A model generated the notes under the pieces. The model was not told where the DNA came from. It was given only the letters and a program-made list of their open reading frames with translations, and did no database searches. 42,980 bases of DNA, from contig JBGVFW010000281.1 in the NCBI GenBank assembly GCA_045121315.1, positions 1 to 42,980 of the forward strand. Reading direction: 5' to 3'. Shown piece after piece: positions 19 to 36,989 of this stretch (position 1 is its first letter; each line of letters begins with the position of its first letter). The translations under genes were made by a program, and so were the position numbers. This stretch comes from Eubacteriales bacterium (lineage in GTDB: Bacteria; Bacillota; Clostridia; Oscillospirales; CAG-272).

Positions 19-1230
19 TTGCAGGATATTCTGAGCAATATGGCAAAGGGCGTTGATTTTAATGGTAACGATGCGATCGCGGCAAGCACTTCCGCTTATG
101 ATGATTTTGACGGTTCTGCTCCAACAGAGGAGTTGAGAAACGTACAGCCGAACATTTTTCGTTCAAGAGTGGACAATTTGTCCACTTCGGTGCAGTCAAG
201 TAAAATTAGGCGGTCGCGAAAAAACCAATTCAATCCTGTCATAGTTGCTATTGCGGTCGGTGCTGTTGCTATTATGGCGATTGTAGCAGCATTGATAATC
301 AAAGCAGGAAGAAACAGCGTCGCGGACGCGGCAACGCCGGATGAAGCGGTGGTTGTGGAAACAACCACCGCACCATCGTCGAATTCTCAGGGGCTTTACT
401 CAGCAGCGGAGCAGCTTGTTTCCGCTGCGATTGCAGAGCCGACAACGAGTATTCAGACGACAGCGCAGCCTACAACACATAGACCTACCGTCCAACCAAC
501 TACGGAAGTTGTAACGAAAGCGCCGCCAAAAGCGAGCACTGTGGAACGTCCGGAGAATACAGAACAGCAAACGGAAAACCATGCGCCTGAAAGAAGTGCA
601 GTCAGTCAAGAAAGCAAAAGCGATTCAGTAAATAACGGTAACTCAGGAAACGCTGATAACCGTCAAAAGCAGAATAGTTATATTGGCGGAGATCCGATTG
701 TTTCCTATAATGACGGCGGCGGTTATTACAATGCCGGAAACAATGAGGTCAGCAGCGTAAAGCTGTCCTACAGCTCCAAATCAATGAGTGTAGGCGACAC
801 TTTGCAACTGAGCGCAACTGTCAGTCCTGCAACAGCTAATCAGAGCCTTTCATGGAGCACTTCAAATTCTTCCGTTGTCAGTGTCAGCAATGGCTATCTT
901 GTTGCGCACCGTGCCGGTTCCGCAACGATAACCGCGAGAGCCGCAAACGGAAAATCTGCAACATGCTCCATAAAAGTGTCGGCACATGACAACAGCGCCG
1001 ACGTTCATCTTTCGGCAACGGAATACAACGTGTCAACCGGTCAGACTGTCACGATCACGCTTTATGGCGCGAATAGTGTTACATGGAACATGAGTAATAA
1101 TTTGCCGTACATTGTTTCTCATTCGTGCAATCAGCTGTCCCTCCGGGCGAGATCGTCCGGTCAAACTATCGTAACGGCAAAGGACAATCATACAGGCAAA
1201 ATCTATACCTGTACATATAATGTGAAATGA
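19..1230 (+). CDS. Membrane-anchored surface protein with bacterial Ig-like (Big_2-type) repeats; possibly 5'-truncated by the window edge
   Basis: The frame is open back to nt 1. One TM segment (VIVAIAVGAVAIMAIVAALII), an S/T/P-rich linker, then Big_2-like repeats (VGDTLQLSATVSPATANQSLSWSTSNSSVVSVSNGYLVAHRAGSATITA). Confidence 0.6.
   Translation: MQDILSNMAKGVDFNGNDAIAASTSAYDDFDGSAPTEELRNVQPNIFRSRVDNLSTSVQSSKIRRSRKNQFNPVIVAIAVGAVAIMAIVAALIIKAGRNSVADAATPDEAVVVETTTAPSSNSQGLYSAAEQLVSAAIAEPTTSIQTTAQPTTHRPTVQPTTEVVTKAPPKASTVERPENTEQQTENHAPERSAVSQESKSDSVNNGNSGNADNRQKQNSYIGGDPIVSYNDGGGYYNAGNNEVSSVKLSYSSKSMSVGDTLQLSATVSPATANQSLSWSTSNSSVVSVSNGYLVAHRAGSATITARAANGKSATCSIKVSAHDNSADVHLSATEYNVSTGQTVTITLYGANSVTWNMSNNLPYIVSHSCNQLSLRARSSGQTIVTAKDNHTGKIYTCTYNVK
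169..185. repeat. Palindrome copy 1, GTGGACAATTTGTCCAC (17/17)
   Basis: Perfect copy inside ORF 19..1230, read as VDNLST just before the TM segment. Flanked A...T. Confidence 0.95.
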
Positions 1231-6051: not shown

Positions 6052-6068
6052 GTGGACAAATTGTCCGA
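6052..6068. repeat. Palindrome copy 2, GTGGACAAATTGTCCGA (15/17)
   Basis: Lies between the stop of 5666..6049 and ATG 6079, abutting the SD GAAGGAG. The track's GTG start at 6052 is the palindrome itself. Confidence 0.8.
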
Positions 6069-6078
6069 AGGAGAAAAT

Positions 6079-6792
6079 ATGCAGTATAAATTTTTTATCA
6101 TTGATAATTTGGAATATTTGGAAGTATGGAAGGACGGACAGTGTATAAACACTATCACGCAGCCGTTTTGCGAAAACGTGCTCAAACTTGTCAATGATGA
6201 CGGTATGTTATCCCGAAGCGAATTAGGCTTGTATGCTCGCAATATCTTCCTGTATTGGGCAGGCGAACAGAAACTTGATGACCGAGCACTGTACACAGCT
6301 ATCTCCTCCTTCTCGCTGCACGTTGCGATGGAGAATAGACAAGGGGAGCTAATCGAGGTTTTATGTCCTGAGCATTTTAATGAAATACTTTTTTACGAGA
6401 TAATCAAGGCTAATCGAAAAATTGCAGACAAACGATTATGGATAATTAGATGCAAAAGGTGTAACAGAATTTTCGCAAACCATAAACAAGGAAGAAGTGT
6501 TTTTTATTGCAATCACAAGGATAGCAACGGATATTCCTGCCACGACATAGTTTTATGCTCTTTCGAGGGTTGGAGTAAATCTGAAGAAGAAAAGAGAATC
6601 CAAAGAACATTTATAAGATATTACAATTCACAGAGAAGAAAACTGCAAAAGCGAGATATTTCAAAAGATCAACTTTCCACATGGTCAAAGATTGCTCGAA
6701 AAGTCCGCGATACTTGTATTGCAGGCGAAATAACGGAAGAAGATTTTATCAAGTGGTTAGACGAAAACAAAGATAACTATACAGAACCATAA
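6079..6792 (+). CDS. Hypothetical zinc-ribbon protein, paralogue A of a tandem pair
   Basis: Start set at ATG 6079 by SD and by alignment with paralogue B (MQYKFFIIDNLEYLEVW vs MYFKFYIIDNLEYLEVW). Contains RCKRCNRIF...YCNHKD...SCHDIV. Confidence 0.7.
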   Translation: MQYKFFIIDNLEYLEVWKDGQCINTITQPFCENVLKLVNDDGMLSRSELGLYARNIFLYWAGEQKLDDRALYTAISSFSLHVAMENRQGELIEVLCPEHFNEILFYEIIKANRKIADKRLWIIRCKRCNRIFANHKQGRSVFYCNHKDSNGYSCHDIVLCSFEGWSKSEEEKRIQRTFIRYYNSQRRKLQKRDISKDQLSTWSKIARKVRDTCIAGEITEEDFIKWLDENKDNYTEP

Positions 6793-6817
6793 ATCAGAGA
6801 AAGCCGGTAAACTGAAA

Positions 6818-7531
6818 ATGTATTTTAAATTTTATATCATAGATAATTTGGAATATTTGGAGGTATGGGAGGACGGAGAGTGTGTAAACACGCTCACACA
6901 GCCTTTTTGCGAAAACGTGCTCAAACTTGTCAATGATGACGGTATGTTATCCCGAAGTGCATTAGGCTTGTATACTCGCAATATCTTCCTGTATTGGGCA
7001 GGCGAACAGGAGCTTGACGACCGAGCACTATACACAGCTATTCCTACGCTGCGCGTAGCGATGGAGAATAGACAAGGTGATCTGATCGAGGTTTTATATC
7101 CCGAACATTTTAGCGACATTGTGTTTTACGTCATTCTAAAGGCACGCCAAAGAATTGCGTACAAAAAATTGTGGGTGATTCGTTGCAAAAGATGTCACAG
7201 GATTTTTGCAAACTTTAAACATGGTCGCAATGTTGTCTACTGCGATTATAAAGATAGTTTTGGAAAATCCTGTCGTGAGATTGTCGCTGAACGAGTAGAT
7301 GGTTGGATGAAATCAGACTATGACCGTAAAATTCAGAAAATATTTGTTAAATATTATAACGAACAGCAGCGCAAAAGAAAGAGAAAGCAGGTGACAACAG
7401 AACAAGTTGCCATTTGGTCAAAAAAAGCCCGTGCCATTCGTGACCAATGTCAAAAAGGCGAAATAACAGAAGAAGATTTTATAAAGTGGTTAGACGAAAA
7501 CAAAGAAAATTATAACGGACAAATAACATAA
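6818..7531 (+). CDS. Hypothetical zinc-ribbon protein, paralogue B of a tandem pair
   Basis: 237 aa and collinear with 6079..6792. The N-terminal roughly 70 aa and the C-terminal GEITEEDFIKWLDENK are nearly identical even at nucleotide level. Confidence 0.7.
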   Translation: MYFKFYIIDNLEYLEVWEDGECVNTLTQPFCENVLKLVNDDGMLSRSALGLYTRNIFLYWAGEQELDDRALYTAIPTLRVAMENRQGDLIEVLYPEHFSDIVFYVILKARQRIAYKKLWVIRCKRCHRIFANFKHGRNVVYCDYKDSFGKSCREIVAERVDGWMKSDYDRKIQKIFVKYYNEQQRKRKRKQVTTEQVAIWSKKARAIRDQCQKGEITEEDFIKWLDENKENYNGQIT

Positions 7532-7572
7532 GCTGTGAAACGAAATGGAAAAGTTTGTTTCACAGCTTTTTC
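7530..7572 (+). terminator. Rho-independent terminator (AAGCTGTGAAAC / GTTTCACAGCTT stem + T-run)
   Basis: 12-bp stem followed by TTTTT, immediately after stop 7531. Homologous to the hairpin at 9190..9234. Confidence 0.65.
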
Positions 7573-7575
7573 TAT

Positions 7576-7592
7576 GTGGACAAATTGTCCAC
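7576..7592. repeat. Palindrome copy 3, GTGGACAAATTGTCCAC (17/17)
   Basis: 4 nt after the terminator T-run and upstream of ORF 7643..7945. Confidence 0.95.
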
Positions 7593-7642
7593 TTGCAACA
7601 TAGACAAAATATAACCCAAATGATATAATGGAGGAAAATGTA

Positions 7643-7945
7643 ATGAAAGAAAAAGAACTAAAAGAAATATTTTTTAACAGAGCAGAGGTTGAAAATGCCG
7701 AACAGATTGTGTGTGACAACTGTTTTGAGGAAATCGTGTATATGCTGCGTGACAGTCATGGTCAGGAATTTTCATTAGGACTGACAACAGTTTTGGAGTG
7801 CATTGCTTTTGCAATCAGCGAGGGTAATCTTCCCAAACTTCCGATAAGCTGGCTTAGCGATGTGGATCACGCTTACGGAACGGCATTTTCTGAAAATGAA
7901 GAAATCCATTATTCAGATAATAGATTTTTAAGGGAATTACAATGA
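7643..7945 (+). CDS. Hypothetical acidic protein
   Basis: ATG 7643 with SD GGAGGA 6 nt upstream (the track start 7628 has no SD). ATGA overlap with the next ORF. Confidence 0.5.
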   Translation: MKEKELKEIFFNRAEVENAEQIVCDNCFEEIVYMLRDSHGQEFSLGLTTVLECIAFAISEGNLPKLPISWLSDVDHAYGTAFSENEEIHYSDNRFLRELQ

Positions 7946-8874
7946 AATACTTCAAAATAAAATCATCTCGATTGGCTGAAAGATACGAAATCACTCCGAA
8001 AATTTTCAATGAAGAAATCACTCCGAAAATTTTCAATGAAGTCACGGAACATAAATACCCTTTTGAAAAGGTACATTCTGATAAATCTGTTTCGCAGTAC
8101 GCAATATGCCCTTCTTGCTTAAACCCTATTCAAATTATTGGAATAGCCAAAAGAACAACCGTCGCTCCTTATGGTAGGCACACAGGAAAAACTGTAGACG
8201 GACTTGCCGCTTGGAATCAAAACAAATACAATTATTGTCCTTATGCCGTTCATCAGATGCGCAGAGAAATAGATGAAGATGAATTACTGCCTGAAATTAC
8301 CGAGGATATTGTTGAGTTATATGAACTGCTCAAATGTCAATTTGACAGGACGGTGTATATTATTTCTAAAGCATTGGATATTAGATGCTCTACTAATTTC
8401 TGGTCGAATGTTTTAAAACAGTATTTGGTAAATAAATATTACTGTTCACCGAGATTAACCGAAGTGAATTTACCGTATCTTTTTGCGTATTTCGGAATGT
8501 GTCATAACAATCCGTTCGGTCAGTCTGTAAAAAAAGAATCCGAACTATATTTTGTGCTAAAAAGTCATAAAAGCGTCAACCTTAGCATTTCTGATAAAAA
8601 TAATCCGGATTATGCTGTTATTAGGGGAAATAAGTTTTTTAGGTTTGAGTTTAGATTTGCCAAATATGGTTTTCGTGCTGACGATGGTAATGTATTAAAA
8701 GAATCAATGTGGTTTTATATAGATGACCTAATAAACCGTAAAACTATTTATGAGAAGCCGATAGAATTTGATGAAACCTATTTTATGAATCTCATTAACA
8801 GCGACAAAAGTAAGAAATGTAGAAATCAACGCTTGCTTGATATTGCAGAAGATTTAATGCCGCCTTTGCGTTGA
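7942..8874 (+). CDS. Hypothetical protein with Cys motifs (CPSC...YNYCPY), unknown function
   Basis: 310-aa ORF translationally coupled to 7643..7945. Contains an in-frame perfect 27-bp duplication. No family recognised. Confidence 0.6.
   Translation: MKYFKIKSSRLAERYEITPKIFNEEITPKIFNEVTEHKYPFEKVHSDKSVSQYAICPSCLNPIQIIGIAKRTTVAPYGRHTGKTVDGLAAWNQNKYNYCPYAVHQMRREIDEDELLPEITEDIVELYELLKCQFDRTVYIISKALDIRCSTNFWSNVLKQYLVNKYYCSPRLTEVNLPYLFAYFGMCHNNPFGQSVKKESELYFVLKSHKSVNLSISDKNNPDYAVIRGNKFFRFEFRFAKYGFRADDGNVLKESMWFYIDDLINRKTIYEKPIEFDETYFMNLINSDKSKKCRNQRLLDIAEDLMPPLR
7987..8040 (+). repeat. Perfect 2 x 27-bp tandem duplication (GAAATCACTCCGAAAATTTTCAATGAA)
   Basis: Read directly. Duplicates EITPKIFNE in ORF 7942..8874. 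Confidence 0.95.
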
Positions 8875-8885
8875 ATAGAAAATTG

Positions 8886-8913
8886 TTGACAATTGCGTAT
8901 TATTAAGTATAAT
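8886..8913 (+). promoter_or_regulatory. Near-consensus sigma-70/SigA-type promoter
   Basis: TTGACA (8886-8891), 16-nt spacer, TATAAT (8908-8913). The -35 lies in the small palindrome AATTGTTGACAATT. No ORF follows. Confidence 0.6.
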
Positions 8914-8919
8914 AATATA

Positions 8920-9234
8920 TGCGAAACAGTGTAGCATAAAAAAACTGTAGGTTGCATAGTAGGGAACCAACCATAATTGCCCGAATTGGCTTGTCGTACG
9001 GTCTTACGACTTAAAATAAAAACGAGGACAGTTTAAGCGTTATGGGGGACTGTCACCTGTGACGGGAAGTCTATTGGTGGGTTGGCTATAAGTGTGCCAA
9101 TGGCAGAAAACACTTAATTATTTGAGAATCAGAGCTGTTCAATCAAAATTTTTAAGCCTGATTTCAACGCAATAAAACCAATGAAAAGAAAAGCTGTGAA
9201 ACGGAAATAGATTTCGTTTCACAGCTTTTTGTTT
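8920..9234 (+). ncRNA. Candidate structured non-coding RNA (about 315 nt), family unknown
   Basis: Bounded by the consensus promoter and the terminator 9190..9234. Only tiny ORFs. Nested helices are visible (GTCGTA/TACGAC, GACAGT/ACTGTC, CCCG/CGGG, AACCAACC/GGTTGG). Confidence 0.35.
9190..9234. terminator. Bidirectional rho-independent terminator
   Basis: AAAGCTGTGAAACG / CGTTTCACAGCTTT stem with T-runs on both strands. Homologous to 7530..7572. Confidence 0.65.
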
Positions 9235-9237
9235 CAA

Positions 9238-9254
9238 GTGGACAATTTGTCCAC
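9238..9254. repeat. Palindrome copy 4, GTGGACAATTTGTCCAC (17/17)
   Basis: Sits a few nt after the terminator, the same arrangement as copy 3. Confidence 0.95.
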
Positions 9255-9363
9255 TTCATCAAGGAGTTGCATTTGTGCAGCTCCTTTTATTATAATCGGG
9301 AACTGGCTTTTGGACAATTCAGAAATAAAACTGTACATTGTTTTTTCTTTTTCTGTCATAAGT

Positions 9364-9804
9364 TTACGCCCCTACACAATACTCAATTGCCGATGTCTTT
9401 ATATTTTCAAAAGCTGTTTGATTTTCAGGCTTGATAAACAATCCGTCAAAGGTTTCGCCGTTTTCGTAGTAATAATTACAGAGCGCTTCGGTGAGGGCAA
9501 GCTCGTCGGTATGTTCAAAATCGGCAAGCATATCGTTGATGGTCTGAGTAAAGGTTGTACAGAGCGTATTACCCTTTTTGAAATAATCAATATCATCAAA
9601 GCTTTCAACTATCCGATAATTAATATTATCATATTCTCCCTTAACTCTCGCATAAACATCAATTTCCTTTTCGTTGACATAGCCAACAAACATTTGCAGA
9701 AACTCAAGCGCAGAACCGCAGCATAGAATATAATTATCTCCGTTAATAATATCTGATAACCAACCTCTGTTTGTAAGATAATCGCCGCTTGTCTTAGTTA
9801 TCAT
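9364..9804 (-). CDS. Hypothetical protein (146 aa)
   Basis: SD GAGGTGA upstream of the ATG on the minus strand. Composition is protein-like, unlike the overlapping + ORF 9229..9726. No confident family call. Confidence 0.6.
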   Translation of the reverse strand: MITKTSGDYLTNRGWLSDIINGDNYILCCGSALEFLQMFVGYVNEKEIDVYARVKGEYDNINYRIVESFDDIDYFKKGNTLCTTFTQTINDMLADFEHTDELALTEALCNYYYENGETFDGLFIKPENQTAFENIKTSAIEYCVGA

Positions 9805-9842
9805 TGTGTAATCACCTCAATTCAATACTACGTTACCGCAAA

Positions 9843-9859
9843 GTGGACAAATTGTCCAC
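9843..9859. repeat. Palindrome copy 5, GTGGACAAATTGTCCAC (17/17)
   Basis: Lies between the stop of the zeta-like gene (9862) and the start of 9364..9804. Confidence 0.95.
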
Positions 9860-9861
9860 TT

Positions 9862-10848
9862 TTATTTTTTGGGTACATTAGGATTTTGATATAATATTTT
9901 CTCGGCTTTTGATGACTGTGTAGGTGGAATCCTGATAACGCTGATTTCGTTTTTTTCAGTATTCCCCTCAACAGATATTCCTGCTCGGCGAAGCTGATCG
10001 GCTTGCTCGCGGCTTACCTTTATGTAACGATACCGATTACTTTCGGCAAAAGTGATAACTTCCTTTGCGTGTTGCCGATAAGAGGTGAGATCCTCGGCGT
10101 TCCGTGCCGCTTTTAAATCGCTCACGGCAGTGACAATTTCTTTTAACTGCTCTGTTTCGTCAATCGTCCACCAACCGTTGAGAGTTCTGCTCTCAACCTC
10201 GGATGCTGATGAACAGCCAACAGCAGGGTATAAACAATCGCCGTTGCGGTTAAATAGCTTTATCGAATCAAACGCTCCTGCTTTTTCAATGGCGTCTAAA
10301 TTATCGGCAATAGCGTCCGCTACCATGTCGTGATGTGCTTTGGCGGTTGCACGGGGGATTTCACCTTGAGCAATAGCATTTTCATATCTCAAAATCGTAC
10401 TTTCATATGAAATTTGGCTTTTTACAGCCATAATATGAAGCTCAACCCGATAACCTTTTTCTTTTAGCATTTTACAGGAGCTTATTGGAACATTCGCAGT
10501 TCGTAAAGTCCCTTCGATAATTAGATTGTATTTCTCGGCACTTAATTCATCAATAAGCCGTTCTGTAACGCGGTTAATAAAAGGTTGGGTATATTTTGGA
10601 GATTCATTGCCGTACATATATTGAATTTCATCAAAGTACGGATGAAATTCGCGAAATGAGTCGGCGTTTATTATGATAATATTTTTATTATTATTTCTTA
10701 TTTGTTTTTGAAGCACTGTTTTTCCTGCGCCGGGTTGACCGCCCAGGATAAAAGCAGTTGGGTTGACTGTTTTTGAGTGCATTTTTGTAACCCAATGTTT
10801 GATTGCTGAATATTGTTCAAAAAACTGCGCATTAGAATATTCAAACAT
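9862..10848 (-). CDS. Zeta-toxin-family P-loop kinase with C-terminal extension
   Basis: Walker A ILGGQPGAGKTV near the N-terminus and overall zeta/PezT-like layout. An extra roughly 55-aa tail (YRYIKVSREQADQLRRAGISV...). Confidence 0.8.
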   Translation of the reverse strand: MFEYSNAQFFEQYSAIKHWVTKMHSKTVNPTAFILGGQPGAGKTVLQKQIRNNNKNIIIINADSFREFHPYFDEIQYMYGNESPKYTQPFINRVTERLIDELSAEKYNLIIEGTLRTANVPISSCKMLKEKGYRVELHIMAVKSQISYESTILRYENAIAQGEIPRATAKAHHDMVADAIADNLDAIEKAGAFDSIKLFNRNGDCLYPAVGCSSASEVESRTLNGWWTIDETEQLKEIVTAVSDLKAARNAEDLTSYRQHAKEVITFAESNRYRYIKVSREQADQLRRAGISVEGNTEKNEISVIRIPPTQSSKAEKILYQNPNVPKK

Positions 10849-11108
10849 TATGCACCTACTGCAAAAGGAGAATTAACATTCTCAATTATCCTTTTGTATT
10901 CATTTATATTTCTTTCGAGTCGATTAAAAGTCACTTCATCAGAACAATCAACGATTTGCGGAGGATATTCGGCTAATTTTTCAGCCAAAACTCTTATGCA
11001 GTCTAATGGCTCTTTTGTGCTATTCAAGTAGTTAGTGTACTTAGCAAGAATGCCAAACGTCTTTTCGTATAAAACCTCAGTTTTTGCGGTCAATAAATAA
11101 CTACTCAT
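10848..11108 (-). CDS. Putative cognate antitoxin (position-based)
   Basis: Start set at ATG 11108 (SD GGAG 8 nt upstream). ATGA overlap with the zeta-like gene. Small helical protein. No sequence-family recognition. Confidence 0.45.
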   Translation of the reverse strand: MSSYLLTAKTEVLYEKTFGILAKYTNYLNSTKEPLDCIRVLAEKLAEYPPQIVDCSDEVTFNRLERNINEYKRIIENVNSPFAVGA

Positions 11109-11162
11109 AAAATACACTCCTTTTCCATTTCTAGTCAATATTATTATATGCTATATGTTCAG

Positions 11163-11179
11163 GTGGACAAATTGTCCAC
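11163..11179. repeat. Palindrome copy 6, GTGGACAAATTGTCCAC (17/17)
   Basis: Sits 2 nt downstream of the XRE gene stop and upstream of the antitoxin/zeta pair. Confidence 0.95.
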
Positions 11180-11181
11180 TT

Positions 11182-11397
11182 TTATTTTTCCTCGTCGTCA
11201 GGGACGTATTCAAGAATATCCCCGGGCTGACAGTTTAGGAAAGAACAAAGTTTTGCTATAGAACGTGTATCAATGTGTCCGCCCTCTAAGATTTTTCTAT
11301 AGGTTGCTTGACCAATAACGTTGTTAATGCGCATTGTATATGCTGTAATCTGTTTTTCTTCAAATATCTTTAGCATTTTATCATATTTAATCGGCAT
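11182..11397 (-). CDS. XRE/Cro-like helix-turn-helix transcriptional regulator
   Basis: Start at ATG 11397 (SD AGGTGG). 71 aa. HTH-like ITAYTMRINNVIGQATYRKILEG...SIAKLCSFLNCQPGDILEY. Confidence 0.75.
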   Translation of the reverse strand: MPIKYDKMLKIFEEKQITAYTMRINNVIGQATYRKILEGGHIDTRSIAKLCSFLNCQPGDILEYVPDDEEK

Positions 11398-11418
11398 TTG
11401 TTTCACCACCTTTACAAA

Positions 11419-11447
11419 ATTATAGCATAACACTCACACTAATTCAA
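11419..11447 (-). promoter_or_regulatory. Promoter of the XRE gene
   Basis: On the minus strand: TTGAAT, 17 nt, TGC-TATAAT (extended -10). Confidence 0.5.
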
Positions 11448-11531
11448 GTGATAATATATATTTTGCGGAAATCACCAGTAATAGTGTCATTTTGTACAGA
11501 AATTCACACTATAATTTGTGCGAAAAGCGAA

Positions 11532-11560
11532 TTGAAGCGCACTAGTATTAGTGCTATAAT
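11532..11560 (+). promoter_or_regulatory. Divergent promoter with internal operator-like inverted repeat
   Basis: TTGAAG, 17 nt, TGC-TATAAT. The spacer contains GCACTA-gtat-TAGTGC. Confidence 0.5.
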
Positions 11561-11702
11561 ATATACAGAAAGTTAAGGAGGTAAGCGAAATACTTAAAAG
11601 ATTATTTCACTGGCTCAGACCGCACAAGGGTTGCAAAAGATGTTGCTTGTGCTGTCGGTATTATCAATACTGTATAGATGATTTTGGAAGAGAATAAACA
11701 AT

Positions 11703-11736
11703 CGGCTGCGCTATCGGCACGACGGGCAGAAAGGAA
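11703..11736 (+). repeat. Conserved 34-nt leader, copy 1 (CGGCTGCGCTATCGGCACGACGGGCAGAAAGGAA)
   Basis: 32/34 identical to 12418..12451. Ends in the SD of the following ORF. Confidence 0.85.
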
Positions 11737-12075
11737 ATGAATATGGCTGAAAACTGGATAACGTATGATGATAAGAACAACGTCCCTCAGAAAAGCTACG
11801 ACGATCTGTTACATTGCGGCTCCACGCGGGAGCTGACTGACGATGAAGCGGTCGCCCTTGTCTGCGAGGAATTTGGCTTTGATAAAGAAAAAGTCACTGT
11901 CGTTCGGACGGTCGGGAAATACGAAATCGACACAAACAGCCGCCGTTTACGCTTGGTGGGAGAAACAGAGCGCAAACCGCTCTATAACGCGACGGATTTT
12001 AATTACGTTCGGTTTGACTGCGCAGGTTGGTTCTACGAAATGTACGACGGTGAGCTGCGCAAGTATTATTGTTAA
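11737..12075 (+). CDS. Hypothetical protein (start may be ATG 11743)
   Basis: 112-aa ORF behind the conserved leader/SD. No family recognised. Confidence 0.55.
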   Translation: MNMAENWITYDDKNNVPQKSYDDLLHCGSTRELTDDEAVALVCEEFGFDKEKVTVVRTVGKYEIDTNSRRLRLVGETERKPLYNATDFNYVRFDCAGWFYEMYDGELRKYYC

Positions 12076-12097
12076 TCTTTCTTCTGCGGGTATGAAA

Positions 12098-12114
12098 GTG
12101 GACAAATTGTCCAC
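12098..12114. repeat. Palindrome copy 7, GTGGACAAATTGTCCAC (17/17)
   Basis: Intergenic between 11737..12075 and 12151..12411. Confidence 0.95.
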
Positions 12115-12150
12115 TTCTGCCCTCGGCAGGATTCGAAAGGAGCATTTCAC

Positions 12151-12411
12151 ATGATAGAAAGACGTTATTTTCAACCAAAGGCAGGACGGAAATATCTCAA
12201 CCGCAACGGCTCTACCTATTTCTGCTTGGCGAAGGGAAAAAAGGACTGTTCGGCTATGTTTATCAACGTGACAAGCGGCTTTACCCTATTGGCTTACGGT
12301 TGTCACAAGAACGACGACGGTACAATGGAATGGGACTATTCTACAGAGCACGGCTATCATGACATCAAATCATTCCTTGAAGGCTACGGATTCGACGGTG
12401 ATATGATATAA
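12151..12411 (+). CDS. Hypothetical protein (86 aa)
   Basis: SD AAGGAG 7 nt upstream of the ATG. Confidence 0.55.
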   Translation: MIERRYFQPKAGRKYLNRNGSTYFCLAKGKKDCSAMFINVTSGFTLLAYGCHKNDDGTMEWDYSTEHGYHDIKSFLEGYGFDGDMI

Positions 12412-12417
12412 CAAATA

Positions 12418-12451
12418 CCGCTGCGCTATCGGCGTGACGGGCAGAAAGGAA
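12418..12451 (+). repeat. Conserved 34-nt leader, copy 2 (CCGCTGCGCTATCGGCGTGACGGGCAGAAAGGAA)
   Basis: 32/34 identical to 11703..11736. Precedes ORF 12459..13046. Confidence 0.85.
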
Positions 12452-12458
12452 CAATAAA

Positions 12459-13046
12459 ATGACACAAGGAGAAATCTTATACTTTGCTTACCTTTACGCA
12501 AAGTCAAAATTGAAGTCTGAGTATGAAATGCAGAGAGAATACTGCACCAAACGCTTTGCGGAGCTGTCGGAACAGCTTGAACAGCTTGGCATGAAGTCAG
12601 CGCAGACAGAGCCGTTGCCCTGTAAGGTTGGCGATACGCTTTATCTCACTTCCTATGAAGCAGCTGACAAAAGGAAGGTTATCGAAAAGGTAACGGTAAC
12701 TGCTATGCAGCACTACGAGGATAATCATTACACACAAGCCGAAGTCAAATACGAGAATGGGTTTACAGGATTCGTTGACGAAGTGGATTTCTACACAACG
12801 CGCAGGGCGCATTTTACCTTGGAAGAAGCAACAGAAGCAGTCGAGCGGTTTAACCTCAAGGAAAAGGCTGTTGCCGTGATTTGGGATTACATCTATCTCA
12901 ACTTCGAAAACGGAATCGATTCATTGTCAGATTATGATTGGCTGAACGATTACGCATTGAGCGCAACAGCTCCTGACGGCAAAAGAATCGTTATCAGCTA
13001 TGACTGTGATACCAATACGGTTAAAGTGGACAATTTGTCCACTTGA
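12459..13046 (+). CDS. Hypothetical protein (195 aa)
   Basis: ORF behind leader copy 2. Its last six codons plus the stop are the palindrome (VDNLST-TGA). Confidence 0.55.
   Translation: MTQGEILYFAYLYAKSKLKSEYEMQREYCTKRFAELSEQLEQLGMKSAQTEPLPCKVGDTLYLTSYEAADKRKVIEKVTVTAMQHYEDNHYTQAEVKYENGFTGFVDEVDFYTTRRAHFTLEEATEAVERFNLKEKAVAVIWDYIYLNFENGIDSLSDYDWLNDYALSATAPDGKRIVISYDCDTNTVKVDNLST
13026..13042. repeat. Palindrome copy 8, GTGGACAATTTGTCCAC (17/17)
   Basis: Forms the 3' end of ORF 12459..13046. Confidence 0.95.
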
Positions 13047-13064
13047 CCGCAAAAGGAGAACGCT

Positions 13065-13265
13065 ATGGCACAGGTTATTATGAGTATGGAAGAATACAGG
13101 CAAACCGAAAACAGGCTCACGGCGATCGGAGAGCTGAAAGAAAAGGTCAGAAGCTCGGGCGTGTTCGAGGACAGCGCAAGCTGTTGGAACACCGAGAATG
13201 ACATTATCAGACCGTTTACCTTGGAAGAAACAAAGGCTCTGGTAAAGCAGATTTTGGAGCTGTAA
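13065..13265 (+). CDS. Hypothetical small protein (66 aa)
   Basis: SD AAGGAG upstream of the ATG. Helical/charged composition. Confidence 0.5.
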   Translation: MAQVIMSMEEYRQTENRLTAIGELKEKVRSSGVFEDSASCWNTENDIIRPFTLEETKALVKQILEL

Positions 13266-13325
13266 ATCATTTTTTGTTCTTCTGTGGGGGATTTTCAAAG
13301 AAAAAAATAAAGATTGTCAAAACCA

Positions 13326-13354
13326 TTGACAACCTTTTACAAATAATATATAAT
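13326..13354 (+). promoter_or_regulatory. Consensus sigma-70/SigA-type promoter
   Basis: TTGACA (13326-13331), 17 nt, TATAAT (13349-13354). The -35 lies in the inverted repeat TTGTCAA-aacca-TTGACAA. No ORF follows. Confidence 0.6.
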
Positions 13355-13360
13355 AATCTT

Positions 13361-13495
13361 GATGGATTTAAAAGTCTAAGTCCAAAGCAATCAGACCGAC
13401 TCGCAATCAGTCTGATTGCCCGTCAACAAAGCATTGGCACTGCTGAGTGACGTTAAGACTTAATCAGGTATATTATACCCGATTTCAGTTTTTTT
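13361..13495 (+). ncRNA. Candidate small RNA (about 135 nt)
   Basis: Consensus promoter. Outer helix AAGTCT..GTC / GAC..AGACTT. Perfect 10-bp hairpin GCAATCAGAC / GTCTGATTGC. Terminator-like hairpin 13462-13484 followed by T7. Confidence 0.35.
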
Positions 13496-13803
13496 GTCAA
13501 CACACCTGTGTCTGTTTTGCTTGGCGGCTTGCGGACACGGGTTTTCTTTTCATCAGTTACAATTGAATAGTATAGGACAGATGAAAATACAAAAGTCAGA
13601 CCCCGGATACGGTAAAAAGCTTTTGCCGTAAATCTAAGAGTGCGGTACTCCGATTAAATGCGCCACAACCTTTAGCGCGTCAGCAGCTAAAGCGAGCGAG
13701 CCAACACTTCTTCCACAAGTGTTGCTACCTGACCTGTAAGAGCTGCGGTGACGCGGTTCTGCCGAATACGAAGTAAACGCAGGAGAATGCAGTAGTGCGA
13801 TTC

Positions 13804-13820
13804 ACGGAGAAATTGTCCAC
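13804..13820. repeat. Palindrome copy 9, degenerate ACGGAGAAATTGTCCAC (14/17)
   Basis: Right arm intact, left arm decayed. About 125 nt from the tRNA fragment. Confidence 0.6.
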
Positions 13821-13946
13821 TCCTCTTGCTTCAGGAAAAGATATACTCTGTATCACCTATACCCAACTATACACTTACCCATATAATAATTTAAGCCAAG
13901 CGATTTAAGCAACTGACACGCCGCCTAAATCGCTTCACTTAAAACT

Positions 13947-13991
13947 TGGTTGCGGGAGCCGGATTTGAACCAACGACCTTCGGGTTATGAG
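13947..13991 (-). other. 3'-terminal 45 nt of a tRNA-Met(CAT)-like gene; putative att core (attP-like)
   Basis: The minus strand reads CTCATAA-CCCGA-AGGTC-GTTGG-TTCAAAT-CCGGC-TCCCGCA-A-CCA (anticodon loop to CCA). No matching 5' anticodon-stem strand or D-arm follows. The integrase gene is adjacent. Confidence 0.7.
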
Positions 13992-14069
13992 ACTGAGAGT
14001 TATTTGTTGAATTTTTTTGCAAAAAATATTACAATAAGGTTTCGATATTTTTTGCAAAGAGGTACCCAT

Positions 14070-15098
14070 ATGAACAAGAGAATAAAATTCAATGCACTTT
14101 CAGAGCTTTGGTTGCAACAAGCGACGTTGGGTGTCACCTATACATACAAAAGCAATTTAGAAAGCTATGTTAAGCACCTTAATAACGCTTTTGGTAATCA
14201 GCTTGTGGTAAATATTAAACCTTATGATATTGATGTACTGATTCAACAGCTGTATATTTGCAATCCCAATACCAACAAACCTTCTTCAAAAAAACTGCTT
14301 GGCAATATTATCAACTGTGCTGTTAGAATTTTCGATTTCGCAATCGAAAATGAGGTTATGTATAAAAATCCTGCCAAAAATAAAAAACAATCAATACCGA
14401 AGAACGCACCGAAAAAGACAGTTAACGCTATCAATTCAGAGCAACAGCAATTAGTTATAGAAACTGATCACCGCGCAAAAATCGCCGCCGTAATTATGAT
14501 GTTCATGGGTTTGAGAACAGGCGAAATCCTCGCTTTGGAATGGAACGACATAGATTTGGAAAACTACATTGTCTCGGTAAACAAGCGATTGCAGCGGATA
14601 AGCGGTAACAAATATATCGTTTCCGACGGCACAAAGAACGGGGAAACCCGACGCGTTACCATACCCAAAAACTTAGGGGCGTGGCTGAGCAAGCAAAAAT
14701 CCATTGCAACCTCTTATCTTGTGGCTCCCAACCGCTCAGGGACAATTCAGACACCTACTCAATGGAAAACCTTATGGACAAGCTACCAGAATGAAATCAA
14801 CTACAACTGCTACGTAAAAAAATGCGCGGAAAACGGAACCGTACCCGAAAGCAAATACGCGCCTACCAAAACACCGCAGGTTATCGCGGCGTTTACCCCA
14901 CACCAATTACGGCACACATACGCTACCCTATTATATATATCCGGCGTTGACGTGAAAACAGCATCTCAACTGCTGGGACATAGCAACATTACGATTACCT
15001 TAGATATCTACACACATCTCGATAAACAATTTCAGAAACTGAACATTCAAAAATTCGATAATTACATCAAGTCAGACCTTGACATTGAGAAAATATAA
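14070..15098 (+). CDS. int: Tyrosine site-specific recombinase (integrase)
   Basis: Start at ATG 14070 (SD AAAGAGG; the track start 13950 reads through the tRNA fragment). Motifs GLRTGEILAL, HQLRHTYATLL, LGHSNITITLDIYTH. Confidence 0.9.
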   Translation: MNKRIKFNALSELWLQQATLGVTYTYKSNLESYVKHLNNAFGNQLVVNIKPYDIDVLIQQLYICNPNTNKPSSKKLLGNIINCAVRIFDFAIENEVMYKNPAKNKKQSIPKNAPKKTVNAINSEQQQLVIETDHRAKIAAVIMMFMGLRTGEILALEWNDIDLENYIVSVNKRLQRISGNKYIVSDGTKNGETRRVTIPKNLGAWLSKQKSIATSYLVAPNRSGTIQTPTQWKTLWTSYQNEINYNCYVKKCAENGTVPESKYAPTKTPQVIAAFTPHQLRHTYATLLYISGVDVKTASQLLGHSNITITLDIYTHLDKQFQKLNIQKFDNYIKSDLDIEKI

Positions 15099-15225
15099 TA
15101 TACTGGAAATGATTGTACGATTGCTAAAATGTAATCGGCTTTTTTATTTTGCGCTAATTTCTCACAAACTTGTGTTGTTTTTCTATTGGACATCAAACGG
15201 AAAGACTGCACATTCAAATAAACAA

Positions 15226-15242
15226 GTGGACAAATTGTCCAC
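15226..15242. repeat. Palindrome copy 10, GTGGACAAATTGTCCAC (17/17)
   Basis: Lies 24 nt upstream of the parA ATG, within its promoter/leader region. Confidence 0.95.
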
Positions 15243-15266
15243 TCAGTAAAGAAAGGATAAGATTAA

Positions 15267-16058
15267 ATGGACAAGAACAAAAAACCTACTATCATCACCA
15301 TAGCCAATGAAAAAGGCGGCGTGGCGAAAACGACCTCGGCGATCAACATTGCCGCAGGGCTTTCCCTCAGAGGAAAAAAAGTGCTGCTCGTTGATATTGA
15401 CAGCCAAACCCACCTCACCAACTGGCTTGACTTCTGTTTTGACGGCAAACCTACCATCGCGGAGCTGATCTATCAGACGGTTGCTCAGTTTCCTGTCAAT
15501 CACGATGACTTCATCAGACACAACAACAAGCTTAACCTTGACTATATTCCCGCGACGCCGATGCTCGCGGGAGCCGTTACAACACTCAAGGCTGACCAGA
15601 CGGACGAAACAACCGTCTTTTCCCGTATCTTTTCTGATGGGTACTTCACAAAATACGACTATATCATCATCGACTGCTGCCCGTCGCTCGATTTACGAAT
15701 TACCAACGCGGTGATCTGTTCGGATATCCTTCTGATAACCGTGCAGGCTGACCCGATACCTTATCAGGGAACCGATAAAATGCTCAAAACGCTGCTTCGC
15801 ATGAAGCCTACCGCAAATATCGGCGAGGACGTTCTGATTCTCCCGACAATGGCAATGAATATTCAGGTCAGCAAGGCGGTTGTTGAAGCAATCTACGCAA
15901 GCTACGGAAACATGGTGCTTTCCCCTATTCCCTTCCGTGCTTCGGTTAAAAATTCTTCCGCAAATAAGACCGTACTGGTCAGAAGAACGTCCGACGATGT
16001 GGGTAGAGCCTACATGAAAGTCGTTGACACGCTGATTGGAGGTGAACACAATGGCTGA
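15267..16058 (+). CDS. parA: ParA/Soj-family partition ATPase
   Basis: Deviant Walker A NEKGGVAKTTSA. ParA-like length and layout (263 aa). Confidence 0.9.
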   Translation: MDKNKKPTIITIANEKGGVAKTTSAINIAAGLSLRGKKVLLVDIDSQTHLTNWLDFCFDGKPTIAELIYQTVAQFPVNHDDFIRHNNKLNLDYIPATPMLAGAVTTLKADQTDETTVFSRIFSDGYFTKYDYIIIDCCPSLDLRITNAVICSDILLITVQADPIPYQGTDKMLKTLLRMKPTANIGEDVLILPTMAMNIQVSKAVVEAIYASYGNMVLSPIPFRASVKNSSANKTVLVRRTSDDVGRAYMKVVDTLIGGEHNG

Positions 16059-16347
16059 AATCAAAAGGAAATATAACTGTAACTGTAAGGAATTTACAGT
16101 TGATGTACAGGGGAACTCCTACCTTGTCATTTGCGGCAAGCACGTCAATGGAGCCTACTGCGCTTTTCCAAATCTGAATATTGCCGCAGAGCTGTCTGGT
16201 TATGACGGCGACTACAGCTATAACGAAAAGAAGCTGCGTCTTGCCTTTGAAGGTCGCAACGGGGTTGACACGGCAGGCGTTATCCGGGAGCTTGCGAGAG
16301 TGATCACTATCGCCGTACAGAAACTTCCTGACGTATTGCCGTTTTAA
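16051..16347 (+). CDS. Hypothetical small protein between parA and parB
   Basis: ATG 16051 with SD GGAGGTG. Overlaps the parA stop by 8 nt. 98 aa. Confidence 0.5.
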   Translation: MAEIKRKYNCNCKEFTVDVQGNSYLVICGKHVNGAYCAFPNLNIAAELSGYDGDYSYNEKKLRLAFEGRNGVDTAGVIRELARVITIAVQKLPDVLPF

Positions 16348-16361
16348 GGGGGTGTGCGACT

Positions 16362-17753
16362 ATGCCAAAATTTAATATTAAAGCACAATCAATTCCTACC
16401 GTTGCAAGCGCCTATGCCGACATAATCGGTACAACCGACAATCAGATCGTTGAAATCAAAAACGAACTTATTGTCGAGGACAATAACCAACACTTTCAGA
16501 TTCACAACGATACTATTGAGCAGCTTGCCGAACACATTGCAAAAGACGGACAGCTCAGTCCGTGCATTGTTGCTCCCCTACCTGATGGTAAATATGAACT
16601 GATTGACGGTCGGCACCGTCGCAGAGCCGTTATTATGGCAGGACTGCCGACAACCAAATGTATCATCAAGACAGGCTTGAGTGACCAGGCGAAAAAAACG
16701 ATTCGCCTGACTTCAAACCTGATACGTAACAACGATTATTTACCGTCAGAGTTAGCCTTCGCCTACAAGGAACTCGCCGCTTTAGAGAATATGAAAACCA
16801 TTTCCGAAGAAACCAATCTCAGCAAAAAGAAGATTTACCGCTATATTCGTTTGACGTTCCTGATTCAGCCGCTTTTGAACAGAGTGGACAACGGGGCTAT
16901 CCCGATTATTGCGGCGGTCGAACTATCGTATCTCTCCAAAGAGGAACAGAGCGAGGTGTTTCAATTCCTCTTGAATCATTCCGATTGTAAAATCACAACG
17001 GCGATCGCCAAAGATATAAAAGAAAACCCATGTGATCTCGATTCGATTTTTTACGGTGTTGAGGAAATGGACAAATTGTCCACTCAGGACGACCGTTCCT
17101 CTGAACAATCCCAAAAATCAAATGATGAAGATTCTGTTAAAACTTTGGTGGACAAAGCACTGAAACCTTATCAAAAGCCTGAAAGCCAAAGAGTTAAGAT
17201 TGAGAACGACGAAGCTCACGTCGCGGAGATCACCGGTGAAGTGGACAATTTGTCCACTAAGAATGAGGAAATGGACGGTGATTCAGACGACGAGGTATTA
17301 CCCGGTATAAATACGGGCAAGCAGCCGATTGTCAACAGGTCTATAGTTGTTGGTAAAGACACCATGCTTTATCAGGACTGCGAGGGTAATGCGCACACCG
17401 TTGACGAGATTGAGGAGAATGTGCTGAGGATCATCTGCGAATATGTTATCAATACGTCTCACATGGATTACTATATCTTTCGGTATGCGTATGACGCAAG
17501 AGAGATTGTCAGCATGTGGAATCAGAATTTTATTAAATCCTCGCGCAAAACGACTGTTGGTGATAATCTGGTATACTCAAATAATAATCGAATTGTCGGT
17601 ATGGCAGATTGGAACGCCGACAAGCGAATGTTCGATATTGAAATACACGGCGAGCATTATATTTTCCTGCATAAAATTCTTCAAGATGTAGTGCGGCGCT
17701 ATATCAGAGAAAACTACACGGTCGAGCGAATCAAAGAGGTCTTGGGAGAATAA
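16362..17753 (+). CDS. parB: ParB-family protein with long C-terminal extension
   Basis: ParB N-terminal box YELIDGRHRRRAV, HTH-like LSKKKIYRYIRL, then an acidic linker carrying two palindrome copies. 463 aa. Confidence 0.85.
   Translation: MPKFNIKAQSIPTVASAYADIIGTTDNQIVEIKNELIVEDNNQHFQIHNDTIEQLAEHIAKDGQLSPCIVAPLPDGKYELIDGRHRRRAVIMAGLPTTKCIIKTGLSDQAKKTIRLTSNLIRNNDYLPSELAFAYKELAALENMKTISEETNLSKKKIYRYIRLTFLIQPLLNRVDNGAIPIIAAVELSYLSKEEQSEVFQFLLNHSDCKITTAIAKDIKENPCDLDSIFYGVEEMDKLSTQDDRSSEQSQKSNDEDSVKTLVDKALKPYQKPESQRVKIENDEAHVAEITGEVDNLSTKNEEMDGDSDDEVLPGINTGKQPIVNRSIVVGKDTMLYQDCEGNAHTVDEIEENVLRIICEYVINTSHMDYYIFRYAYDAREIVSMWNQNFIKSSRKTTVGDNLVYSNNNRIVGMADWNADKRMFDIEIHGEHYIFLHKILQDVVRRYIRENYTVERIKEVLGE
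17067..17083. repeat. Palindrome copy 11, ATGGACAAATTGTCCAC (16/17)
   Basis: Inside parB, read as MDKLST. Confidence 0.85.
17241..17257. repeat. Palindrome copy 12, GTGGACAATTTGTCCAC (17/17)
   Basis: Inside parB, read as VDNLST. Confidence 0.95.
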
Positions 17754-17776: not shown

Positions 17777-18238
17777 ATGGATTTACAACTTATCGGCAAT
17801 ATTGCAAAGCTGAACCAAACCATTGAGAGCTTTAAAAGCAATTATCGGGTGGAGTTGATTTTAAACAGGAACCGCTTTATCCGTTCTGTTCTTTTGCTAA
17901 CCGTTATAGTGACTGCCGTTTACATCTTCTGCATGGTCTTTTTTCAGGCAAACATAGAAGCTGTTGTTGCCTTTGCAGCCGCCATTATACTGTGCTTCAT
18001 CATTTCCATAGTAGCGCTTAAACCATATAGTCAAACGGACGAAGCAGATAACAGCAGTGAAGAAGTGGACAATTTGTCCACTGACAGCACACCTGAGCCA
18101 AGCACCGAAACAGCTAAGCTGCCGGAGCTTTGGTATCAGGATAAGAATAATACTATTCATTCTTGTGATGAAATCAAGCCAAAGCATTTAAAAACAATCT
18201 GTGAGCGTATTCAATCTGTCATAGTGGAGGGACAATAA
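17777..18238 (+). CDS. Membrane protein with acidic C-terminal tail
   Basis: Two TM helices, then SSEEVDNLSTDSTPEP and a LWYQD...DEI...ICE segment resembling the ParB C-terminus. Confidence 0.55.
   Translation: MDLQLIGNIAKLNQTIESFKSNYRVELILNRNRFIRSVLLLTVIVTAVYIFCMVFFQANIEAVVAFAAAIILCFIISIVALKPYSQTDEADNSSEEVDNLSTDSTPEPSTETAKLPELWYQDKNNTIHSCDEIKPKHLKTICERIQSVIVEGQ
18065..18081. repeat. Palindrome copy 13, GTGGACAATTTGTCCAC (17/17)
   Basis: Inside ORF 17777..18238 (VDNLST). The shared flanks give GAAGAA-[palindrome]-TGRCAGC. Confidence 0.95.
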
Positions 18239-18469
18239 ATGTTATCTATAATTATAATACCTACAATGTTACTATTTGCATTATTTTACTTCTTAGGAGA
18301 TACATTGTTAGATGATGTAGTTGACGGAGAAATATCTAAAGCTACTAAAACCGATGATGAAGATTTGGAGAATGTTCAGTGCGAAGAAGTGGACAATTTG
18401 TCCACTGGCAGCGAAAGTGCTCCCGAACCAACAGATGATGAAGTATGGAGAGGTTTTCAGGATAAATGA
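18239..18469 (+). CDS. Small membrane protein with acidic tail
   Basis: One N-terminal TM helix, then CEEVDNLSTGSESAPEP. Abuts the previous stop and overlaps the next start. Confidence 0.45.
   Translation: MLSIIIIPTMLLFALFYFLGDTLLDDVVDGEISKATKTDDEDLENVQCEEVDNLSTGSESAPEPTDDEVWRGFQDK
18389..18405. repeat. Palindrome copy 14, GTGGACAATTTGTCCAC (17/17)
   Basis: Inside ORF 18239..18469 (VDNLST). Confidence 0.95.
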
Positions 18470-21715: not shown

Positions 21716-21732
21716 ATGGGCAAATTGTCCAT
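21716..21732. repeat. Palindrome copy 15, variant ATGGGCAAATTGTCCAT (14/17)
   Basis: Has its own extended arms ACACAATGG / CCATTGTGT (21711..21737). Upstream of ORF 21808..22659. Confidence 0.6.
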
Positions 21733-36972: not shown

Positions 36973-36989
36973 GTGGACAAATTGTCCGC
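36973..36989. repeat. Palindrome copy 17, GTGGACAAATTGTCCGC (16/17)
   Basis: Lies 29 nt upstream of the -35 of the dinJ-yafQ promoter, in the divergent region before the giant ORF. Confidence 0.85.

Follow-up and report, generated by a model that had tools for sequence, protein, structure and literature searches.

A multicopy palindrome, candidate loading site of an element-borne ParB, recurs at mosaic junctions of a Ruminococcus-type integrative conjugative element

The window analysed here is the whole of a 42,980-base contig from a Eubacteriales bacterium (JBGVFW010000281.1), and our subject is a short palindrome that recurs along it. Pfam and NCBIfam scans of the window's proteins returned the gene content of a Gram-positive conjugative element: a 5′-truncated gene for a Big_2 surface protein; topoisomerase III, a DUF3991-Toprim primase and a winged-helix Rep-like protein, which precede the accessory stretch (6052-15242); a tyrosine integrase (14070..15098, + strand); SpoVG-like proteins, sortases and Cna-B/pilin-type adhesins; SSB, a NikA/MobC protein and a MobA/VirD2-like relaxase; ArdC and RelB/YafQ; and a large polyvalent protein of more than 1,968 residues (37077-42980, + strand) with LPD3, MutS_I (MutS domain I), YodL-like and LPD25 domains, which runs off the contig end. 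Between the integrase and the adjoining small open reading frames (ORFs) lies a par locus, comprising genes for a ParA-type ATPase (15267..16058), a DUF6618 protein (16036..16347) and a 463-residue protein of the ParB/Spo0J/Noc/KorB fold (16362..17753), all on the + strand. A 50-nt 3′ fragment of a tRNA-Met (13942..13991, − strand), an attP-like site, sits just before the integrase, and no complete tRNA gene was found in the window. In integrated relatives the element ends at an intact tRNA-Tyr or tRNA-Arg gene. The window therefore has attP in its interior and represents part of the excised or plasmid-like, extrachromosomal form of a Ruminococcus-type integrative conjugative element. Upon integration, the accessory half comes to lie at one end and the int-parAB region at the other. 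The relatives form a large family of tRNA-integrating conjugative elements of rumen and gut Ruminococcus.

The palindrome, GTGGACAAWTTGTCCAC, is a 17-mer in which two 8-bp arms flank one central A/T base; it often extends to 19-21 bp as (A)A...T(T), with AAGTGGACAAATTGTCCACTT as the 21-mer form. A search that tolerated up to 3 mismatches gave 18 copies in the window, against 0.09 expected (100 shuffles, maximum 2), and a repeat finder run on the window recovered the same palindrome family. The logo of 95 unique copies was strictly two-fold symmetric, with no conserved asymmetric flanks. Since the central base flips between orthologous copies, the palindrome is without polarity. Fourteen of the 18 copies fall in the 12.4 kb surrounding attP.

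The first-pass annotation had listed nine copies between 6052 and 15242 and taken them to mark every gene-module boundary of the accessory half. All nine are there, seven of them perfect. The copy at 6052..6068 (2 mismatches) lies between the stop at 6049 of the 5633-6049 gene and the start at 6079 of the first of two tandem DUF6076 genes (DUF6076a), and is a junction in the related loci L023, L047 and L050. That at 7576..7592 follows the terminator hairpin of the second gene (DUF6076b) and lies 9 nt ahead of the -35 in the 7643 gene's promoter, and that at 9238..9254 separates the terminator of a candidate RNA from a convergent gene for a 146-aa protein. Two copies bracket an epsilon/zeta toxin-antitoxin cassette: 9843..9859, 2 nt past the zeta stop, lies in the left repeat of the cassette, and 11163..11179, 2 nt past the stop of an XRE-type regulator gene, lies in the right repeat and overlaps the -35 (TTGTCC) of epsilon/zeta. 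The copy at 12098..12114 is placed between the genes at 11737-12075 and 12151-12411, and that at 13026..13042 occupies the last codons (VDNLST, then stop) of the 12459-13046 gene. The copy at 13804..13820, with 3 mismatches, is effectively one good half-site in attP-proximal non-coding DNA, and that at 15226..15242 lies 24 nt upstream of parA. All eight strong copies of the interval fall in gaps or on last codons, which has a chance of ~1e-5 in an interval that is ~76% coding. The placement at junctions thus stands, but not at every boundary: 6 of the 14 gene junctions of the interval have no copy, including the main divergent promoter region, between XRE and the 11737 gene, and the statement was partly circular because the modules had been defined by the palindromes.

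The palindrome is also not limited to the accessory half or to intergenic DNA, as nine further copies (169, 17067, 17241, 18065, 18389, 21716, 30313, 36973 and 42310) lie elsewhere, some inside genes. Five copies (15226, 17067, 17241, 18065 and 18389) form a cluster at parA-parB. Two of the five are within parB itself, in the part that encodes a predicted disordered linker, where 17067..17083 is read as MDKLST and 17241..17257 as VDNLST; a further two, 18065..18081 in ORF 17777-18238 and 18389..18405 in ORF 18239-18469, each lie within the fossil of another parB linker variant. The copy at 169..185, in the truncated Big_2 gene, is again read as VDNLST and is orthologously conserved in relatives. 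Two copies with 1 mismatch are read in the frame GQIVH: 30313..30329, inside a third DUF6076 paralogue, and 42310..42326, in the stretch between the last two domains of the polyvalent protein. Another copy with 1 mismatch (36973..36989) lies between relB/yafQ and the gene for the polyvalent protein, and a weak copy with 3 mismatches lies at 21716..21732. The in-gene copies of the window sit in acidic, low-complexity or inter-domain stretches. The parA-parB cluster, the in-gene copies and the link to a ParB-family protein had all been omitted from the first-pass annotation.

Relatives of the ParB protein number more than 3,600 in metagenomes and Ruminococcus genomes. At 11 of 12 genome loci a copy of the palindrome lies ~0.8-1.2 kb upstream of the parB start, just ahead of parA as 15226 is in the window, and most of the 12 also have 1-3 copies inside parB. 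There the palindrome is read as GTG GAC AAW TTG TCC ACN and yields the linker hexapeptide VDNLST, VDKLST or MDKLST; VD(N/K)LST is encoded one to four times by 109 of 112 full-length ParB homologues, always at residues 226-352. In the ParB alignment the hexapeptide is the sole recurring element of a hypervariable linker, and in the AlphaFold2 model of the window's protein residues 233-332 are disordered between two confident domains. Its retention in such a linker argues for constraint at the level of DNA. Over 117 unique contexts of the palindrome, 68 fall between genes in DNA that is 89% coding, and the 49 in-gene contexts comprise 37 in the VD(N/K)LST frame, 10 in the GQ(I/F)VH frame and 2 in the third frame. 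The in-gene copy of Big_2 is kept in the orthologue throughout the relatives compared. In integrated relatives every copy is on the element side of the tRNA, the copies stopping at the flanking tRNA gene.

The identical 17-mer was found in elements whose Rep proteins are only 47-49% identical. The site is invariant while the integrases are 27-67%, the ParA proteins 40-99.6% and the ParB N-domains 50-88% identical, and it is unchanged where ParA switches type (40% identity) in L009-L011. As the site persists while integrase, ParA and XRE diverge, it tracks the conserved N-terminal and helix-turn-helix (HTH) region of ParB. The most distant ParB locus, L010 (38% identity), carries the variant CGGACAATTTGTCCG upstream of parA, with one base changed per half-site.

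The ParB protein consists of an N-terminal CTPase-type domain, an HTH, the disordered linker and a folded C-terminal domain. It scored above the cut-offs of Pfam ParB_N (39.7 bits; cut-off 26.3) and NCBIfam parB_part (69.7 bits; cut-off 58.45), a profile search matched Helicobacter pylori Spo0J-parS (4umk, E 2e-15) and Noc, and Foldseek matched the predicted model to Noc, ParB-CDP and KorB structures with E values of 1e-9 to 1e-11. The N-terminal 220 residues are nearly invariant among homologues, and the GxxRxxA motif (G83, R86, A89) and the HTH are invariant. In the nucleotide-hydrolysis motif ENLQR (residues 117-123), which reads SNLIR in this family, Glu is replaced by Ser or Thr, and N119 and R122 are invariant. 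The ParA-type ATPase matches AAA_31, CbiA and ParA, its best NCBIfam match (ParA_partition) being below the cut-off, and the DUF6618 protein encoded between parA and parB is without a recognisable relative. The hallmarks of a ParB-parS system are therefore found together: a GxxRxxA N-domain with an HTH, an adjacent ParA-type ATPase, and a multicopy palindrome at par that is conserved with the family. The XRE regulator (HTH_26; 11182..11400, − strand) was considered as the binder and set aside, as a comparison of the window with L019, L050 and L051 showed divergence across the entire HTH and conservation of the C-terminal tail only, against an invariant site.

To follow gene content along the accessory stretch, we compared it among several relatives at loci anchored on Rep homologues. 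The first-pass annotation had suggested that the palindromes could be module-exchange sites, and the alignments bore this out to the extent that gene content breaks exactly at palindromes, though at other places too. L023 is without the DUF6076 pair and has in its place a single palindrome, with the left flank of 6052 on one side and the right flank of 7576 on the other; L019 and L020, without epsilon/zeta, have a single palindrome between the left flank of 9843 and the right flank of 11163. The slot after 6052 is occupied by two DUF6076 genes in the window, one in L019 and L024, none in L023, ToxN in L050 and L051 and an fn3 protein in L047, and homology stops 0-2 nt from the palindrome in both partners. 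Blocks shared with L019, L040, L047, L050 and L051 likewise end 0-3 nt from palindromes in both partners. Such blocks end at 7594 (L019-22, L050), at 9256 and, for L019 and L020, at 12117; they start at 7576 (L023), at 9842-9844, at 11163 and, in L004, L005, L007, L008 and L011, at 15219-15251. Other breaks lie away from palindromes: at 8013/8866 in L024, at 11232-11555 (XRE), at 12410, where L050 has an additional 67-aa gene, and at 13571, on the edge of the att arm.

When 39 loci were compared all against all, with blocks of at least 80% identity and at least 150 bp, 49 of 346 unique block ends lay within 5 nt of a copy, and for 47 of these 49 the partner's end was also at a copy. Among intergenic block ends, 35 of 172 (20%) were at a copy, compared with 4% of intergenic bases that close; because shared ancestry inflates these counts, the enrichment is given without a p-value. 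Twelve families of left flanks are joined via the palindrome to 2-4 families of right flanks, as are 11 in the reverse direction, and flanks are also reassorted in the distant clade L032-L045. The par locus itself is mosaic. The ParB homologues P0002, P0007 and P0009 share 99.3% identity over 300 residues, as far as the second VDNLST, and 40-48% beyond it, their C-terminal parts matching other lineages, so that these parB genes are chimeric at the site equivalent to 17241. The genes or gene parts int, parA, DUF6618, parB-N and parB-C are reassorted across loci, and the two small ORFs downstream of parB (17777-18469) carry fossils of other parB linker/C-domain variants around 18065 and 18389, one of them 66% identical over 64 aa to P0076 (E 1e-27). 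The palindrome is, to judge from these alignments, a preferred mosaic junction.

Our favoured reading, held with little more than even confidence, is that the palindrome is a loading site for the element's own ParB-family clamp (16362-17753), resembling parS or the KorB operator (OB). By analogy with ParB, Noc, KorB and BisD, ParB dimers would load at each copy and spread as nucleotide-gated clamps, and the stretch around attP and parAB would form one ParB-coated domain that serves partition with ParA and probably damps expression there. As the sole sequence identical in all relatives amid unrelated DNA, the palindrome would also offer a crossover point for co-resident elements, and each exchange would carry a copy along, giving the palindrome-module-palindrome layout. 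We infer that such exchange could proceed through the short homology, without a dedicated enzyme.

Several observations weigh against this reading. ParB is put forward as the binder from its position, its co-conservation with the site and the elimination of other candidates, and other conserved small proteins (DUF6618, the product of the 127-aa gene after Rep, DUF6076) may bind the site instead. The recognition helix of L010, KKIYRYIRL, is unchanged although its half-sites differ by one base, so that co-variation between protein and site is weak. The replacement of Glu in the ENLQR motif suggests that nucleotide hydrolysis and CTP turnover may differ from those of other ParB proteins. The site, at 17 bp with a single central base, is unlike the 16-bp chromosomal parS, and the two sequences are unrelated. 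About 86% of block ends lie away from palindromes. Finally, exchange has taken place independently many times over a shared 17-21 bp, a small length by the standards of RecA-type exchange, which could point to an active mechanism. We give a small chance to a stronger version, in which the palindromes are an active cassette platform of Gram-positive conjugative elements where bound ParB, or an unrecognised enzyme recruited to the sites, pairs copies and catalyses or strongly stimulates exchange. If so, a partition site would double as the crossover site of an integron-like shuffling of modules, one that also remodels parB.

The main rival, which we consider unlikely, places at the palindrome a dedicated system of site-specific recombination, akin to integrons or pdif modules, which would use it as the core site for inserting, excising and swapping cassettes, with partition binding secondary or absent. 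It would explain why clean present/absent pairs of cassettes leave exactly one copy, why the epsilon/zeta cassette is flanked by a 27-nt direct repeat, why crossovers occur at the site even within parB and why flanks have been reassorted independently so many times at a site that is short for ordinary homologous exchange. Yet no recombinase is conserved with the site. The sole one in the window, the tyrosine integrase, was rejected as the enzyme acting at the palindrome, given the low identity among the integrases of relatives noted above and their varied tRNA targets, and it reached 50.7 bits against the 265-bit cut-off of the integron-integrase model. A tyrosine recombinase would require an overlap region of 6-8 bp, for which a centre of one base has no space, and the flipping of the central base deprives the site of polarity. 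The orthologous copies inside Big_2 and parB are conserved without being boundaries, and several insertions or deletions bypass the site.

Two further readings, already raised by the first-pass annotation, concern transcription or single-stranded DNA and are weaker still. That the palindrome is the operator of a small HTH repressor, of the XRE/434 type or uncharacterised, rather than a ParB site seems to us slightly less probable than dedicated recombination. The idea draws on the 13-bp core GGACAAWTTGTCC, which a literature search showed to be identical to the SsoII/Ecl18kI operator AGGACAAATTGTCCT, which is bound by a 434-repressor-like N-terminal HTH, and on the two copies at promoter-like sites, namely 11163, which abuts the XRE gene and provides the -35 of a TTGTCC-16-TATAAT promoter of epsilon/zeta, and 7576, just upstream of a -35. 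Elsewhere the promoter and terminator scan offered little for per-operon operators: half of the accessory copies (6052, 9843, 12098 and 13026) lie between co-directional genes in gaps of 2-40 nt, too short for a promoter, no copy is found in the divergent promoter region of the XRE gene itself, and 15226 has a weak promoter region on one side and the ribosome-binding site of parA on the other. The XRE HTH varies among relatives while the site does not, in-gene copies are conserved, and no other Pfam HTH protein is conserved beside the sites. More improbable again is a hairpin formed in single strands, acting as an RNA terminator or insulator or as a signal for priming or processing of the transferred strand of DNA, a proposal that the data did not support. 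In its favour, the free energy of a 21-nt RNA hairpin is -10.9 kcal/mol, a primase is encoded on the element, and copies 9843, 11163 and 15226 score as terminator-like; these three, however, face away from the adjoining genes, and a T-run on either side is found at only 19 of 112 unique copies, for which reasons we rejected a role as an intrinsic terminator. Moreover, the 1-nt centre would give a strained loop, many copies lie in long ORFs that need transcription through them, and no copy is near the relaxase/oriT region. The in-gene copies and two-fold symmetry are a better fit to a protein dimer on duplex DNA. The transcription context thus fits neither a classical operator nor a terminator, and is compatible with loading sites of a clamp that slides, so that the exact placement relative to a promoter is of less importance; precedents are KorB (PMC11790492) and BisD, with its sites within genes (PMC12409273).

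Among known systems, KorB-OB of the IncP plasmid RK2 (PMC11790492, PMC13584720) likewise pairs a ParB-fold protein, encoded beside a ParA-type gene, with a short odd-centred palindrome present in many copies across a conjugative element, some at promoters and some far off, and the predicted fold of our ParB matches KorB structures 8qa8 and 8qa9. The present system differs in its Gram-positive host, in an unrelated site of 17 bp rather than 13 bp and in copies inside coding sequences; no KorA or TrbA homologue was recognised here, and binding by ParB is putative. To our knowledge, coincidence with module-exchange joints has not been described for OB. BisD-bisS of ICEclc (PMC12409273) offers a ParB-like clamp on an integrative conjugative element, with palindromic odd-centred sites inside genes and a parA-like gene upstream, but has two functional sites against 18 here, site sequences that are unrelated, and in BisD an activator with a partner, BisC. 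Chromosomal ParB/Spo0J-parS and Noc-NBS share the N-domain and HTH fold, a site in or next to parB and several clustered sites; the 16-bp parS consensus TGTTNCACGTGAAACA is not present here, and our 463-residue ParB differs from the chromosomal proteins in its long disordered linker and its C-terminal domain.

Other systems resemble the layout rather than the binder. In the case of integrons, the likeness lies in the present/absent cassette pairs that leave one site, as at the L023 and L019 junctions. An attC site is an imperfect 57-141 bp inverted repeat with extrahelical bases, whereas the palindrome here is perfect over 17-21 bp and lacks conserved flanks. The window's integrase, which falls short of the IntI type by its score, sits at a tRNA attP, and the modules occupy both strands with promoters of their own, unlike integrons, where promoterless cassettes in one direction accompany attI and a common promoter. 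The pdif (dif) modules of Acinetobacter plasmids (PMC6449649, PMC13141974) are also bounded by one short site, often carry toxin-antitoxin genes and are shuffled among related replicons. Their site is a polar 28-bp XerC-6-XerD sequence with 11-bp arms, in alternating orientation and acted on by host Xer (PMC6449649, PMC13141974); the symmetric palindrome here, with its 8-bp arms, 1-bp centre and lack of polarity, does not have an Xer-type arrangement. The PeSL motifs of T4-type phages (PMC2839356, PMC4122927) are repeated stem-loops that flank small modules in plastic regions and serve as crossover points for insertion, deletion and replacement, but they are composite promoter-terminator motifs and most copies here have neither a promoter nor a T-run. 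The SsoII/Ecl18kI methyltransferase operator (PMC2760811, PMC6100179), an odd-centred palindrome with the identical core, occurs once, in a restriction-modification locus, and its binder is a methyltransferase with a fused 434-like HTH; no such fusion was found in the window, M.SsoII itself not being among the sequences compared, and the identity of the cores is probably convergence. Taken together, the binding mode is probably most like KorB-OB and BisD-bisS, and the layout and evolutionary effect like pdif, integron cassettes and PeSL. The likely primary role of the palindrome, as a ParB site, is an addition to the first-pass annotation.

Little is understood of the ways in which accessory genes, such as those of toxin-antitoxin and abortive-infection systems, enter and leave the conjugative elements of gut and rumen Firmicutes. 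One short invariant site, probably bound by ParB, that both organises the element and marks module exchange would give a handle on this modular evolution, and the palindrome is a simple sequence tag for locating the element family and its cassettes in metagenomes. For the field of ParB clamps it would add a many-site example whose in-gene sites keep to a constant reading frame of the coding sequence. Specialists may find surprising the dual role of the site, the fixed frame of the in-gene copies and the chimeric parB genes.

Searches beyond the family returned little. We found no description of the motif or the element family in the literature searched. In near-identity DNA searches of plasmid and phage collections the tRNA fragment was the sole match, and no annotated record had similar DNA. 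Among viral contigs the Rep search gave no relative, and three exact 19-mer matches lay in contigs without similarity to the window or the loci, a count that we estimate to be about that expected by chance. A search with the window's own Rep protein matched a single 1.6-kb contig. No Rfam family was matched by the window or the candidate RNAs, and no solved or named relatives of DUF6076 or DUF6618 were found.

The attachment targets of the family differ: the window carries the tRNA-Met fragment, and L019, L050, L051 and L034-L045 are at tRNA-Tyr or tRNA-Arg. Given these different targets and the divergence of the integrases, the int-att module has itself been swapped; its right boundary is at 15115 or at the palindrome at 15226.

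The accessory modules of the window are compact. Module 1 (6079..7531, + strand) is the tandem DUF6076 pair, itself an optional cassette; the pair (74-91% DNA identity) and the gene at 29778-30629, in the conjugation region before SSB, make three DUF6076 paralogues. Module 2 (7643..9236, + strand) comprises genes for 100-aa and 310-aa proteins and the candidate RNA. This RNA, of ~320 nt (8886-9236, + strand), combines a strong terminator with a perfect promoter (TTGACA-16-TATAAT), folds with a z-score of -3.84 and is 97% identical in L024 (12592-13014), where the neighbouring 310-aa gene is absent. The terminators that precede the copies at 7576 and 9238 are common to close relatives only, and were rejected as a part of the motif. 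Module 3 (9364..9804, − strand) is the gene for the 146-aa protein, which is the partner of AbiEii in L019. A 98.6%-identical block (window 9279-9363, L019 6949-7029) begins inside the 5′ end of the L019 AbiEii gene; the window thus retains a mere stub of that toxin gene beside the 146-aa partner. Module 4 (9862..11138, − strand) is the epsilon-like/zeta cassette. It is flanked by the 27-nt direct repeat GTGGACAAATTGTCCACTTTTATTTTT (within 9836-9869 and 11156-11189), which on one side takes in the last two codons and the stop of the zeta gene and on the other those of the XRE gene, unrelated to it. Two perfect sigma-70-type promoters near attP, at 13326-13354 (+ strand) and 13500-13472 (− strand), stand face to face ~120 nt apart, which suggests an antisense RNA pair; the block that holds them (13182-13571) is 83-98% conserved in L019, L050 and L051.

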